A DNA stretch of 64,000 nt, from the NCBI RefSeq assembly GCF_003334405.1, contig NZ_QOWM01000018.1; one strand, 5' to 3'. This stretch comes from Escherichia coli (GTDB taxonomy: Bacteria > Pseudomonadota > Gammaproteobacteria > Enterobacterales > Enterobacteriaceae). The position numbers and the translations under genes were made by a program. The notes below the pieces were generated by a model. It was not told where the DNA came from. It saw nothing but the letters and a program-made list of their open reading frames with translations, and searched no databases. Shown piece after piece: positions 2,355 through 38,430 of this stretch; position 1 is the first letter of the stretch, and every line of letters begins with the position of its first letter.

Positions 2355-3169
2355 AAGCACTCACCTCTCTCATTTTGCCAGTAATACTGCTTACTGGTTG
2401 TTCTTCTTCCCCCACCATCTCGCCAGGTGGTGTCAATACGCCACCACCTGACATTAATGCATGGCTTAAACCACGAAGTGAAAAGCCGGATAGTCTGTCA
2501 GAAACCCGCTGGAAAATGCTGACCGACGCGGGTAAAACGCTTGGATTTCGTGGTGGCAAGGCTCAGCGTTCATGGGAGCTGATTCAGGCACTCAACGCCC
2601 GGGAAAGCACACTTAATGCCTTATACGATTTCCGGCCACTGATTAGCCCGGAAGGCTGGCTACCACCGGTTATTGATGAAGCACAGGACGTTGCTCATAT
2701 CACGCCAGATCAAATCCGGACCTCTTCCCGGGTCTGGACCATCATTCGCCCTGAACGCTTTGTCAGCAATCCACCGGGCTGGCGTGACTGGCTTCTCCGG
2801 GGGCTTTCAACAACAGCCACTCCGGGTACAGAAGGCAGCGTCGTTCCAGAAGACAGCGTGCAACGAAAAGTGTGGGAAACCGCATTACGGCAGGGATGGC
2901 AGGAAGGAAGACAAAACGCCGACCTGACGCTTGAAGCCAACCAGAAAACCCTCACCCGTGATTACCGGGGCATGATGCTGTACTCACTTCTCTGGCGTCA
3001 GGGCATGATCACCCGTCCGGATGTTTCTGATCAAATGCAAACCGTTACAGGTGACGGGAAAAAACTGGTCACTGGAGATCGTGTTCGTCGCCTTAAAAAT
3101 CATGCGGAATTCAATCTTCAGAAATCTCACTGGCGTCCGCTTATAGGCACTGAAGGAGGCTCCCGATGA
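2351..3169 (+). CDS. traI: T4BSS lipoprotein TraI (DotC-like)
   Basis: Lipobox LLTGCSS; 272 aa; overlaps traH stop and traJ start. Confidence 0.65.
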   Translation: MKALTSLILPVILLTGCSSSPTISPGGVNTPPPDINAWLKPRSEKPDSLSETRWKMLTDAGKTLGFRGGKAQRSWELIQALNARESTLNALYDFRPLISPEGWLPPVIDEAQDVAHITPDQIRTSSRVWTIIRPERFVSNPPGWRDWLLRGLSTTATPGTEGSVVPEDSVQRKVWETALRQGWQEGRQNADLTLEANQKTLTRDYRGMMLYSLLWRQGMITRPDVSDQMQTVTGDGKKLVTGDRVRRLKNHAEFNLQKSHWRPLIGTEGGSR

Positions 3170-23676: not shown

Positions 23677-23892
23677 TTACCGATAAATTCGACCAAGTGC
23701 TTTAATCGCAGCAATTTTTATTTCCATATCATCACTTTGACTCAATCTATGTAATTCACGCGTAATGTTCTCCGCCTGACATCGGCCTTCACCTAATGCA
23801 TAGATCACAGCAAGTGTAACGTCTTTTGATTTACTCTTCATCATTTCAAACAAGAAAGTATTAGCTATCGCAGGAGGCATGCTCATAATCAA
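23677..23892 (-). CDS. Small hypothetical protein
   Basis: 71-aa ORF, AT-rich, convergent with excA; alternative start codon; no recognised domain. Confidence 0.25.
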   Translation of the reverse strand: MIMSMPPAIANTFLFEMMKSKSKDVTLAVIYALGEGRCQAENITRELHRLSQSDDMEIKIAAIKALGRIYR

Positions 23893-24217: not shown

Positions 24218-24394
24218 ATGAATCTGGTAGACGCCTTTGTCAAAAAAGTAATATCCGGGCCGTATGAAGAATATGGAAAATGGTGGATAGATGTCGAATA
24301 CATTTCATGGGGTGTTCCCGGGAAAACAAGACTGATGTTTGACTCAAAGGAGCAGGCACTGGAAGTTAAGGAAGGGTACAAATTTTTAACGTGA
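24218..24394 (+). CDS. Small hypothetical protein (58 aa)
   Basis: ATG preceded by AAGGA-like SD; followed by a perfect 9-bp-stem hairpin at 24402-24438; no recognised domain. Confidence 0.25.
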   Translation: MNLVDAFVKKVISGPYEEYGKWWIDVEYISWGVPGKTRLMFDSKEQALEVKEGYKFLT

Positions 24395-24458
24395 GATCTC
24401 TTTTTGTTAAAGGGCAGGAAGCGGTCACCTCCTGCCCTTAGTTACGTTTCCAGGCTTA

Positions 24459-24554
24459 TCAGTCGATAAGTTCCCGGATCAGTTCCAGAACAGCAATCAG
24501 CGCGTTTGCAACGGCAACTACTGCCCTGAGAACGATGATTAACAGATTAATCAT
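24459..24554 (-). CDS. Candidate type I toxin: 31-aa single-helix hydrophobic peptide (DinQ/ZorO/TisB-like class)
   Basis: ATG with GGAG SD 6 nt upstream; MINLLIIVLRAVVAVANALIAVLELIRELID; leader contains a 24-nt element repeated in the divergent sRNA gene. Confidence 0.4.
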   Translation of the reverse strand: MINLLIIVLRAVVAVANALIAVLELIRELID

Positions 24555-24812
24555 CCGCTTCTCCATCACTGGAGGAAATCACCGTTGCTTACTCTTACAT
24601 TGCCTGTCACAACGGCACTTTCAGTGTTAGTTGAAAAGAGACTTCCTCCTGCCAGAGCACTGAACACAGCACCACCTGTTTGTTCAGCCAGGACTTAAAA
24701 TCTTGCATCCATAGTCCCGATGGATATCACGGCAGAAGTGTCGCCAGACAGAGCTAACCTGCGGATTATAAGGATGGTTGCTATCAAATGAACAGCTCGC
24801 TATTATAAGAAC

Positions 24813-24899
24813 GTTAGTTGAAAAGAGATTACCTCCGGTCAGGGCCACCAACTCTGTAACGGAACAGTAAAAAAACCGACCTCACCAGTCGGTTTTTTT
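24813..24899 (+). ncRNA. Candidate trans-acting antitoxin sRNA (~85 nt)
   Basis: Promoter TTGCTA-17-TATTAT at 24778-24806; 5' 24 nt (24814-24837) match 22/24 the + strand at 24626-24649 inside the toxin leader; ends in hairpin ACCGAC-N7-GTCGGT plus T7 (24875-24899). Confidence 0.4.
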
Positions 24900-25052
24900 A
24901 CATCTGTTGTTTCTCAAAATCCGCCCGACATGCCCGTCACACCGGGGAAACTCATGCTCTGAATCAGAACCAACCATCTCAACTTTGCCGTCTCCTGAAA
25001 AAACTGGCACATTCAGTTCGATAACTACCCATAAATACAGAGAGAAAATCCG

Positions 25053-25304
25053 ATGTCAGAAAAGTGGAGTAAAGAATTCGACTCTTGCTTTCAGGTGGGG
25101 AGCATAGAAGAAATTGCCGATGCTCTCGAGAAACGCAGCGGAAGCGAGGAAAATGCGTTAGCCATGCTGGCAATGACAGCCTTCACACTCATGACCCGAC
25201 GTGGTATCTGCGAAATGCAGAACGTGGCCCCCGATGGCAAAGGCATTCGGCTGGAGCTAATGGGCTTCAGGGAAAATGAAACAATACCGGATACGCTTCA
25301 TTGA
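25053..25304 (+). CDS. Hypothetical protein (83 aa)
   Basis: ORF with ATG start; followed by hairpin GGCGGCAG-N6-CTGCCGCC; no recognised domain. Confidence 0.3.
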   Translation: MSEKWSKEFDSCFQVGSIEEIADALEKRSGSEENALAMLAMTAFTLMTRRGICEMQNVAPDGKGIRLELMGFRENETIPDTLH

Positions 25305-25375: not shown

Positions 25376-25528
25376 TTAACGTTTAACTTCGTAGGCTAAC
25401 GTTGCCACAAGCACTGTGTTTCCCTGCTGGAGCCGGAGTCCGCAAAGCGAATCCCTCACCATCCAAACAAAACACAGAATCGTCACACAGATGACGATTA
25501 ACATCATTAAAAACGTTCGCTGTGGCAT
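25376..25528 (-). CDS. pndA: Hok-family type I toxin PndA (50 aa)
   Basis: Translates to MPQRTFLMMLIVICVTILCFVWMVRDSLCGLRLQQGNTVLVATLAYEVKR, Hok/Gef pattern; overlapped in another frame by the track ORF 25383..25667 (mok/pndC-like). Confidence 0.85.
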   Translation of the reverse strand: MPQRTFLMMLIVICVTILCFVWMVRDSLCGLRLQQGNTVLVATLAYEVKR

Positions 25529-25819
25529 CATAGCCCCTCCATTGCCTTACGGCGGTTATCGGGCTACTATAATGTTGTCTAGGCATTACAGTAGAGCCCT
25601 TGGTTGATTGATAAAAAAATCTCCAGGGGCTTTCTGCTGTATACCGTCCACAAAACGCTTTCGGCATACAGCCTCAAGCGCCCGCAGCTATTCTAACGAC
25701 TTTCGTATCTGCAACAATCCTTTTATCGCACGGCTAATTCCTCTGGTTAGCTCTTATCGCCTGCAAATAAATTTTTAACCTTTCCGTTTGATTTAAATTC
25801 CAGAAATGGAGACTTTGTC

Positions 25820-37311: not shown

Positions 37312-37404
37312 GGCATAATCTCCATAGATAGTGATTGAGATGCCGGACTTCCTGGCGGGGAAGCGCCGGCGGAGAGAGGCAGGGTTTATCGCCCTGCCTC
37401 TTTT

Positions 37405-37839
37405 TCATTTCGGACAGCGACGCAGTGCCAGCGCGAGCGCTTTCATCTTCCAGCCTTCCGGCGTGCGGTACATCACCTTCCAGTAGCCGTCGATGAACAC
37501 ATAATGGAAGCGCACCTCTTCAGTGCTTTCAGTGGCAATAGCTTCCCTGAAAGAACGGTACTCACGCGCCTCACTGTCCATCCGGAAACCACTGTCACGT
37601 CCGTAATAAGCCGTCACACCGTCCACCGGGTTCTGAAGCGTATGCCCGGCGGGTTTGTCGCAACGGGGACCGAGGCAACGGATATCACCGTGTTCAACCA
37701 GGGCTTCGGCCTGCTGACCGGTGGCATAGTGGGTATGCAGGATGCGACCGTTCCAGGTCGGCTCACCGTGCAGGTGGCAGTAAACGGTACGGAACACCCC
37801 GTCGCGGCAAAAAACGGAAATCGTGCTGCTGACAGTCAT
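37405..37839 (-). CDS. Hypothetical Cys/His-rich protein (144 aa), first gene after ssi copy B
   Basis: ORF with SD; no recognised domain. Confidence 0.4.
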   Translation of the reverse strand: MTVSSTISVFCRDGVFRTVYCHLHGEPTWNGRILHTHYATGQQAEALVEHGDIRCLGPRCDKPAGHTLQNPVDGVTAYYGRDSGFRMDSEAREYRSFREAIATESTEEVRFHYVFIDGYWKVMYRTPEGWKMKALALALRRCPK

Positions 37840-37889
37840 GAAAACGTCTCCTTCTGCTGAATCAGGTCGCCGGGCCGACCGGTTGCTCC

Positions 37890-38430
37890 CCGGAGGGGCG
37901 AAAGCCCCTTCTGCCGTCCACTTCTTCGGGGTTTCTCCCCGCAGTGGACCTTTCCGATGGGGCGTCCGTCACCACGTCACGGGGCAGCTGTCCGGGGGCG
38001 GACGCAAAATTTTTTGCCGGGTTTATGGCTAAAAATTTTGTGGACGGTATATCTTCCCCTGGACTGCTGAAACGGGATGTGGTTACTCCAGCCCCCGGAA
38101 AGTCCACAGCGGGAAACAGGCCGCAGGGGTGGCGGCGGAAGGGTTGACTGCGCCATCAGGCGCAGTTGCCTTACACACCGTCAGGTGTGCAGGGAGCGCC
38201 GTTTCCGGCGCGACAGGGGCGGCGCGACCGGAACGGTCGCTGCAAGCCTGGTTTTTCAGACATCGGACCGTAGCGGCAGCCCGAAACCGCGCCAGCGGGT
38301 TCGGCGGAGACTGGCGGGTGCGCCAGCAGCTGCCTGTCGGAGTCGGGCCTGACGACCGGATGCCGCCAGGCAGCCGGGAGCCGAAGGTGTCCCCGCCTCC
38401 GGAAATCAGAACAACAGAAACGACATAACA
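37890..38430. repeat. Frpo/ssi-like GC-rich repeat, copy B (family 1)
   Basis: About 540 bp, near-identical to copy C over most of its length. Confidence 0.55.

Follow-up and report, generated by a model that had tools for sequence, protein, structure and literature searches.

A probable dqlB/agrB type I toxin-antitoxin module beside pnd in the transfer region of an I-complex plasmid

Introduction

Between excA and trbA, close to the Hok-type pnd locus, a 64,000-nt stretch of Escherichia coli DNA (the window, meaning the whole stretch analysed here) carries a 31-codon open reading frame and, divergent from it, what appears to be a gene for a small RNA. Is this pair a second type I toxin-antitoxin module, and if so, to which family does it belong and how would it work? 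The original prediction, made from the sequence, placed it in the DinQ/ZorO/TisB class, ascribed the complementarity of sRNA and toxin leader to a direct DNA repeat, and implied that such a module was new to I-complex plasmids.

Much of the relevant background is published. Kristiansen et al. defined the dinQ-like (dql) genes in 2016, split them into dqlA and dqlB, and described them on chromosomes of Enterobacteriaceae and on natural plasmids, with conserved leader elements (PMC5066626); matching antisense RNAs are predicted for the 2016 dql loci in T1TAdb. Two plasmid copies were characterized in 2025: DqlB-agrB of the IncL plasmid pOXA-48 is toxic, is neutralised by agrB and causes death on plasmid loss (PMC12365149), and the copy of the IncX3 plasmid pOXA-484 is toxic and stabilised a test plasmid (PMC12317039). 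In the survey that formed part of the pOXA-48 study, 83.2% of IncB/O/K/Z plasmids and 67.4% of those typed IncI1 carried dqlB (PMC12365149), and RefSeq labels the reading frame “dqlB: DinQ-like type I toxin DqlB”, including on IncI plasmids. Given the 2016 description, the RefSeq labels and the 2025 survey, the module is known, its presence on I-complex plasmids included, and the implied novelty fails. Our literature search, which included the pESBL Tn-seq, I-complex TraDIS and pOXA-48 papers, found no experiment on an IncI copy.

Results

The toxin gene

Two features define the coding part of the locus:

24459-24554, minus strand: dqlB, a 31-codon ORF plus stop (ORF list, NCBIfam NF041473, RefSeq identity)
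24564-24561, minus strand: Shine-Dalgarno (SD) sequence GGAG, 6 nt upstream of the dqlB ATG, aligning with dinQ element 4/SD

Both are present as originally predicted. The product, MINLLIIVLRAVVAVANALIAVLELIRELID, is a putative DinQ-like single-helix membrane toxin; an alternative in-frame GTG start at 24569 would give a product of 36 aa. The peptide scores 67.8 bits against the NCBIfam model NF041473 (“DinQ-like type I toxin DqlB”), a 31-position profile with a curated cut-off of 35 bits for the whole-protein score, with residues 1-31 matching profile positions 1-31. It is identical to RefSeq WP_000609148.1, which is labelled DqlB. Against the DinQ model (NCBIfam NF041472) the peptide reaches 20.3 bits, below the cut-off of 30, with a match confined to residues 18-29; BLASTP against DinQ gives 11 identities in 17 positions, in the C-terminal core. 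DinQ proper is ruled out by this low score together with the missing LexA operator (see below): judged by its sequence, the peptide is a relative of DinQ, not DinQ.

The antitoxin RNA and the direct repeat

The opposite strand carries the putative antitoxin gene, and the toxin leader carries its target:

24778-24806, plus strand: sRNA promoter TTGCTA-17-TATTAT (consensus promoter scan; aligns with the K-12 agrA and agrB promoters)
24814-24901, plus strand: AgrB-family antitoxin sRNA, ~88 nt (Rfam RF02891, terminator scan, predicted fold)
24867-24901, plus strand: intrinsic terminator, a 14-bp stem followed by a T run (terminator scan)
24626-24658, minus strand: AgrB target site in the dqlB 5′ UTR, mRNA about +101 to +133 (repeat copy; homologous to dinQ G88-A119)

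The Rfam AgrB model (RF02891, gathering threshold 40 bits) matches 24814-24901 on the plus strand with 58.5 bits over model positions 1-84 of 84, and this is the sole AgrB match within the 64-kb window. The predicted fold divides the RNA into a single-stranded 5′ recognition region, which holds one repeat copy (24813-24845), an internal hairpin and the intrinsic terminator. The divergent sRNA envisaged earlier, with its promoter and terminator, was recovered by the scans as an RNA of ~88 nt. Membership in the OrzO, IstR and OhsC families was rejected: OrzO-P scored 33.3 bits against a gathering threshold of 60, through a 32-nt match to the terminator alone, and the IstR and OhsC models of Rfam gave no match.

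The direct repeat spans 33 nt (24626-24658 and 24813-24845) and is 85% identical (28/33); a repeat search of 24300-25100 returned this one direct-repeat family. Its 24-nt core, reported originally as the entire element, is real, but the actual length is 33 nt. The 22/24 match reported for that core likewise holds with the second copy at 24813-24836; the start given for that copy, 24814, was one base too high.

Collinearity with dinQ-agrA

The locus aligns end to end with dinQ-agrA of E. coli K-12, at 77% mean column identity; for the sRNA plus promoter, agrB can be aligned as well as agrA. The window and K-12 share the mRNA 5′ end (GUUAGCUCUG), the AgrB site, leader elements 2-4, the SD hairpin, the 3′ hairpin, the sRNA body and the terminator, and the DinQ and DqlB peptides share an ALIA(L/V)LELIR core. 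They differ as follows: K-12 DinQ has 27 aa and the window DqlB 31 aa; K-12 has both agrA and agrB, whereas the window has one sRNA gene, at the agrA position; and dinQ has a LexA operator over its -10 and +1, which the window dqlB does not.

Pairing and co-variation

Across the 33-nt repeat, sRNA and leader can form 28 Watson-Crick and 3 G-U pairs with 2 mismatches, including an uninterrupted 5′ run of 18 bp that could serve as the seed. A duplex of -58.8 kcal/mol is predicted between the mRNA and the first 45 nt of the sRNA, compared with -29.5 ± 3.2 kcal/mol for 500 shuffles, the best of which reached -42.8 kcal/mol (z-score about -9).

We extended the comparison to 16 further plasmid loci, from IncI, IncF, IncX3, IncX4, IncX5, IncL/M and IncN plasmids. 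An Rfam AgrB match adjoins dqlB in 11 of these, and the other five (IncL/M, IncN and others) keep the leader/sRNA repeat and the conserved terminator; the IncL/M and IncN sRNAs have diverged beyond the reach of the Rfam AgrB model, but the window sRNA lies above its gathering threshold. Of the first 24 positions of the recognition sequence, 15 are variable among 12 loci, and for each of the 12 sRNAs the cognate target ranks first or joint first. Cognate partners match in 167 of 180 variable-column cells (permuted mean 104.9, maximum 146), a value reached in 0 of 5000 permutations. In every relative examined the repeat co-occurs with the ORF and co-varies with it, and the proposed co-occurrence on related plasmids is borne out. 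The 33-nt repeat and this co-variation uphold the idea that a direct repeat makes the sRNA complementary to the toxin leader. Together, the family-model scores, the shuffle control and the co-variation reject a chance ORF next to a chance repeat.

Compared over 34 nt, the cognate duplex of the window has 28 Watson-Crick pairs, 3 mismatches and 3 G-U pairs, and at -49.1 kcal/mol it ranks with the weakest that we compared, most plasmid pairs lying between -51 and -63 kcal/mol. In energy it is nearer to the inactive agrA:dinQ pair (-44.9 kcal/mol) than to agrB:dinQ (-60.4 kcal/mol), and its uninterrupted run is 18 bp versus 9 for agrA:dinQ.

Transcript, promoter and leader switch

Alignment with dinQ places the following features around the coding region:

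24400-24758, minus strand: predicted dqlB transcript, ~355 nt (collinear alignment with the 331-nt dinQ mRNA)
24410-24439, minus strand: dqlB mRNA 3′ hairpin, within the predicted ~355-nt transcript
24765-24770, minus strand: dqlB promoter -10 hexamer TATAAT (read from the sequence; homology)
24649-24640, minus strand: leader element 2 (GGAGGAAGUC), inside the AgrB target site (alignment to dinQ)
24571-24580, minus strand: leader element 3 (GAUUUCCUCC), pairing with element 2 or the SD (alignment to dinQ U167-U178)
24561-24574, minus strand: SD-sequestering hairpin CUCCA-GUGA-UGGAG, dinQ elements 3:4 (alignment, folding)
24674-24693, no strand assigned: CTG-N10-CAG motif, predicted on pTF2 as a LexA box; mRNA +66 to +85, in stem-loop 2; doubtful as an operator

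From homology to the dinQ +1, the dqlB mRNA is predicted to begin at about G24758 with the same GUUAGCUCUG as dinQ. The dinQ +1 itself was placed at L001:1483 from the published dinQ numbering and checked for consistency with the AgrB site (G88-A119) and the SD (G184-G187). Around the predicted start, TATAAT-N6-GTTAGCTCTG aligns with the -10 and +1 of dinQ, where the counterpart is TATGAT-N6-GTTAGCTCTG, and TATAAT-N6/7-GTTAGCTCTG is conserved in two of the plasmid loci (L010 and L014). The minus-strand TATAAT noted originally is present at 24770-24765, but the promoter scan made no call there because the -35 is weak, at best 3/6; the assignment of the dqlB promoter to this position is supported by homology.

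The leader has counterparts of dinQ elements 2, 3 and 4. The counterpart of element 1 is weaker, at 7 bp, so that 1:2 pairing is partly conserved. The computed energies are -17.4 kcal/mol for the 2:3 duplex and -7.0 kcal/mol for the 3:4 hairpin. Across 16 loci, cognate 2:3 duplexes average -16.9 kcal/mol versus -12.1 kcal/mol for non-cognate ones, a difference that 0 of 5000 permutations equalled, and all of these loci but L016, which folds otherwise, have a predicted equivalent of the SD hairpin (15 of 16). With the AgrB site blocked in the folding model, the SD hairpin closes, with a probability of the SD being unpaired of 0.00-0.01. This closing agrees with what SHAPE and in vitro translation showed for dinQ with agrB, for which RNase III cleavage of the duplex was also reported (PMC5066626).

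Neither the free mRNA nor its 5′-truncated forms showed a clearly open SD on thermodynamic folding: the unpaired probability of the SD in truncated mRNAs was 0.07-0.26 for most truncations, with a peak of 0.53 at +81. Folding of 5′ truncations was therefore uninformative about activation of the dinQ +1/+44 kind, and since it left the SD mostly paired, we base activation by 5′ trimming wholly on homology to dinQ.

Distribution and genetic context

A megablast search of PLSDB with the 551-nt region returned 2073 records, and the more sensitive blastn at least 5000, mostly conjugative plasmids annotated with dqlB and hosted mainly by Escherichia, Klebsiella and Salmonella. The window allele recurs at 95-99% identity in ~490 PLSDB records, from which we argue that it works.

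Among typed plasmids, the nearest relatives belong to IncI-gamma/K1 and have the gene order traY-excA...dqlB...pnd-trbA, and the window’s repZ pseudoknot fits an I-complex replicon. The Hok-type pnd locus reported nearby is confirmed 0.9 kb from dqlB, with a 134-bit match to the sok model at 25526-25683 and the PndA ORF at 25376-25531. Like dqlB/agrB, pnd is a type I addiction module (of the Hok/Sok family) with a small membrane toxin, and it occupies the same excA-trbA interval. It differs in having a cis-encoded antisense RNA that overlaps the leader, a toxin of ~50 aa and translation coupled through a leader ORF, whereas the dqlB/agrB sRNA is trans-encoded and non-overlapping; the sequences of the two modules are unrelated.

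Recognition alleles and orphan AgrB copies

The IncI1 plasmid pESBL-EA11 encodes the identical toxin peptide in the same interval next to pnd, with a recognition allele identical to that of the plasmid locus L004. Cross duplexes between the window and pESBL-EA11/L004 are computed at -24.6 and -28.5 kcal/mol; cognate pairs lie between -49 and -62 kcal/mol. By this modelling, the two recognition alleles are orthogonal.

Some plasmids carry extra or orphan AgrB copies. Locus L008 has an extra AgrB that matches the window-type target at 24 of 24 positions and does not match its own target. In the IncI-gamma/K1 plasmid NZ_CP098180.1 the corresponding interval contains three AgrB genes, each of a different recognition type, together with a sok remnant, and positions 1-100000 of its 100768 contain no DqlB-like ORF. 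One of its AgrB RNAs fits the window target (-53.6 kcal/mol) better than the window’s own sRNA does, and one orphan copy scores 41 bits, just above the gathering score. At least 80% of the NZ_CP098180.1 AgrB array is covered in ~317 PLSDB records.

Could the main selected role of the system then be competition between plasmids rather than simple vertical stabilisation, in which agrB/dqlB recognition alleles diversify so that a competitor is unable to neutralise the killing by the resident plasmid, and toxin-less relatives keep AgrB arrays as immunity? The same peptide in the window and in pESBL-EA11/L004 goes with recognition sequences that do not cross-pair, and the extra AgrB of L008, the three-type array of NZ_CP098180.1 with no DqlB ORF and the ~317 records point the same way. 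The argument is purely comparative, however, and deletions between repeated terminators could have left the orphan copies behind as decay products; one of them barely scores as AgrB. Competition would also add to post-segregational killing rather than replace it. As an account of the main selected role we consider it doubtful, though the orthogonal alleles and the orphan arrays on sibling plasmids hint that incompatible plasmids compete over antitoxin specificity. If so, the role of the orphan arrays would be to neutralise the post-segregational killing that incompatible competitors impose.

SOS control and decay

Chromosomal dinQ is controlled by LexA (PMC5066626), which raises the question of whether the window module is an SOS-inducible stress toxin of the same kind rather than a constitutive addiction system. 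On the IncI1 plasmid pTF2, a LexA box, ACCTGTTTGTTCAGCCAGGA, with a heterology index of 11.64, has been predicted 119 nt upstream of dqlB (PMC12211044). The same 20-mer recurs at 24674-24693 in the window, and CTG-N10-CAG is found at this position in 10 of 15 plasmid loci checked, as well as in the window.

The location of the box speaks against an operator. It lies away from the promoter, inside a stem-loop of the transcribed leader ~75 nt downstream of the -10, which makes it a doubtful regulatory key. While its CTG and CAG ends recur, its inner 10 nt vary freely among loci, so an RNA stem fits better than an operator. The dinQ operator, TACTGTATGATTATCCAGTT, overlaps the -10 and +1; at that position the window has CCTTATAATCCGCAGG, with no CTG-N10-CAG, and the sole such motif lies in the leader, at mRNA +68 to +83. 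In addition, DqlB was undetected in the pTF2 proteome (PMC12211044), and the IncL and IncX3 homologues are addiction modules that act without DNA damage (PMC12365149, PMC12317039). LexA control of the window dqlB is unlikely, and an SOS-inducible stress toxin is a very improbable description of the module; addiction rather than a damage response is what the plasmid context leads us to expect.

That the locus is a decaying, non-functional remnant, its toxin unexpressed or its antitoxin no longer needed, might be read from the degraded cognate pairing relative to sister plasmids (28/33 identity, -49.1 kcal/mol), the weak dqlB -35 and the loss of the toxin from some sibling plasmids, but it is very improbable given an intact ORF, SD, start codon, set of switch elements, pair of -10 boxes and pair of terminators, a peptide identical to the widespread WP_000609148.1, an allele kept at 95-99% identity in ~490 PLSDB records and an 18-bp uninterrupted seed.

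Discussion

We consider it very likely that the locus is a dqlB/agrB type I toxin-antitoxin (addiction) module, carried by plasmids as the counterpart of the chromosomal dinQ/agrB. The original type I reading in the DinQ/ZorO/TisB class is sustained by the DqlB and AgrB family matches and by the collinearity with dinQ-agrA, and the known element that the region matches has the same function as the one proposed. What our analysis itself contributes is family membership for both genes, collinearity with dinQ, complementarity, co-variation (sRNA with target, element 2 with element 3), a predicted switch with conserved dinQ elements and the lack of the dinQ LexA operator. By analogy with the IncL and IncX3 homologues, which are toxic, rescued by agrB and kill, and with the RNA mechanism of dinQ, we infer that the IncI-complex copy in the window would behave alike.

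The mechanism may be pictured as follows. By homology, dqlB would be transcribed from a promoter that has a consensus -10 but lacks a LexA operator, giving an mRNA of ~355 nt whose leader takes up ~204 nt. Translation of the full-length RNA is probably poor, and 5′ trimming would activate it, as in dinQ. In the active form, element 2 (GGAGGAAGUC) would pair with element 3 (GAUUUCCUCC) and keep it off the ribosome-binding site. The 5′ 33 nt of the AgrB-like sRNA would pair with the part of the leader in which element 2 lies; element 3, freed by this pairing, would fold onto the SD (CUCCA-GUGA-UGGAG) and block translation, and the long sRNA:leader duplex would be a likely RNase III substrate. 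On loss of the plasmid the sRNA would no longer be replenished, leftover dqlB mRNA would be translated, and the 31-aa helix would enter the inner membrane and kill or arrest the cell.

Among the known systems, the modules of pOXA-48 (IncL) and pOXA-484 (IncX3) share with the window copy the NCBIfam family, the 31-aa toxin, the divergent AgrB-type sRNA, the conserved terminator and a 33-35-nt repeat in the toxin 5′ UTR. They differ in backbone and recognition sequence, the window copy lying in an IncI-complex transfer region between excA and pnd/trbA. The tisB/istR-1, zorO/orzO and shoB/ohsC systems likewise have a divergent, non-overlapping sRNA and a long toxin 5′ UTR that needs processing, but by sequence the window locus belongs to none of these families.

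Since dqlB/agrB already has a name and models in both NCBIfam and Rfam, and has twice been validated by experiment, the finding is an ordinary one, and its practical value is that of an annotation reminder: in the plasmid records we fetched the sRNA half is unannotated, and several GenBank records have no annotation even for the toxin.

The module may also bear on an observation made with pESBL. This IncI1 plasmid still kills plasmid-free cells once pnd has been deleted, and the study that reported this could name no candidate for another system (PMC7602700). Lying next to pnd on pESBL-EA11, dqlB/agrB is a direct, testable candidate for the missing killer. The wider proposal, that I-complex plasmids carry several mutually orthogonal agrB/dqlB recognition alleles with the toxin peptide unchanged, that orphan AgrB arrays of toxin-less siblings confer anti-addiction immunity and that dqlB/agrB is the second killer of delta-pnd pESBL, is put forward tentatively, as a combination that we think unlikely to hold in all its parts. 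In the pESBL Tn-seq data the antitoxin interval has no score, and the long ORF Hp26, which contains dqlB, is non-essential, as expected for a toxin.

Divergent recognition sequences and additional AgrB-family genes

The DqlB peptide encoded by pESBL-EA11 (L023 8505-8896; NC_018659.1 about 80500-80895) is identical to that of the window locus (24459-24901). The sRNA/target recognition sequence of the pESBL-EA11 allele (GTCAGTTATAGACAGTT...) is nevertheless unlike that of the window, the sRNA and its target having co-varied, and cross-pairing between the two alleles is predicted at -24.6 and -28.5 kcal/mol, near background. Previous work on pESBL found that post-segregational killing partly remains once pnd is deleted, leaving a second system without a candidate (PMC7602700).

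Several plasmids carry AgrB-family sequences other than a single cognate gene, in L002 together with a sok/pnd-leader remnant:

L002 (NZ_CP098180.1, sibling IncI-gamma/K1 plasmid) 2343-2430, 2589-2676 and 2969-3056: three AgrB-family sRNA genes, 53.1, 55.3 and 41.0 bits
L002 2708-2856: truncated second sok/pnd-leader remnant, 70.5 bits
L008 (NZ_CP124821.1, IncI-gamma/K1) 1320-1407: second AgrB-like copy, 37.4 bits, slightly below the gathering score
L012 (NZ_CP007599.1, IncX4) 2003-2085: second AgrB-family gene, 56.8 bits

The three genes of L002 lie inside the excA-trbA interval (about 37400-38130 of the record) and differ from one another in their 5' recognition sequences. The array is matched over at least 80% of its length in about 317 PLSDB records. 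No DqlB-like ORF was found in positions 1-100000 of this 100768 bp plasmid. Judged by sequence, the copies may be orphan antitoxins that confer anti-addiction immunity, or else decay products. The sok/pnd-leader remnant is interspersed with them, on a plasmid that also has the intact pnd locus, an arrangement that suggests past duplication and recombination in the interval.

The 5' 24 nt of the second copy in L008 match a window-type dqlB target perfectly, but not the leader of the plasmid's own dqlB. The second gene of L012, about 0.6 kb beyond the cognate AgrB gene, matches the local dqlB leader poorly across its recognition region (22/36); the two genes resemble the agrA/agrB pair of K-12.

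LexA-like motifs

A LexA box has been predicted for dqlB on the IncI1 plasmid pTF2 (PMC12211044). This box corresponds to window 24674-24693, which falls in the transcribed leader (mRNA +66 to +85, stem-loop 2) rather than the promoter, and the window has no LexA-like motif at the position of the dinQ operator. The diverged dqlB locus of NZ_CP139659.2 (L015) does have a motif at that position:

L015 about 1246-1261: CTG-N10-CAG (CTGACGCAGTATACAG), with the start codon 193 nt away

Some plasmid copies of dqlB may thus have kept SOS control.

Neighbouring variable regions

Comparison of the window with L002 (1685-1894) and L023 (9320-9529) showed that the slot between excA and a conserved 58-aa ORF varies in content, being filled by hha on other IncI plasmids and in the window by:

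23677-23892, - strand: 71-aa ORF, annotated in relatives as a HEAT-repeat protein

Two RNA elements, about 0.9 kb apart, mark the replicon neighbourhood of the window:

62690-62844, - strand: repZ regulatory pseudoknot (RF01087), 134.8 bits
63697-63784, + strand: C4-type antisense RNA (Rfam RF01695), 77.6 bits

Sibling plasmids have a gene annotated as 'ash family protein' in this neighbourhood, which, near the C4 RNA, suggests a phage-type immunity cassette adjoining the replicon.
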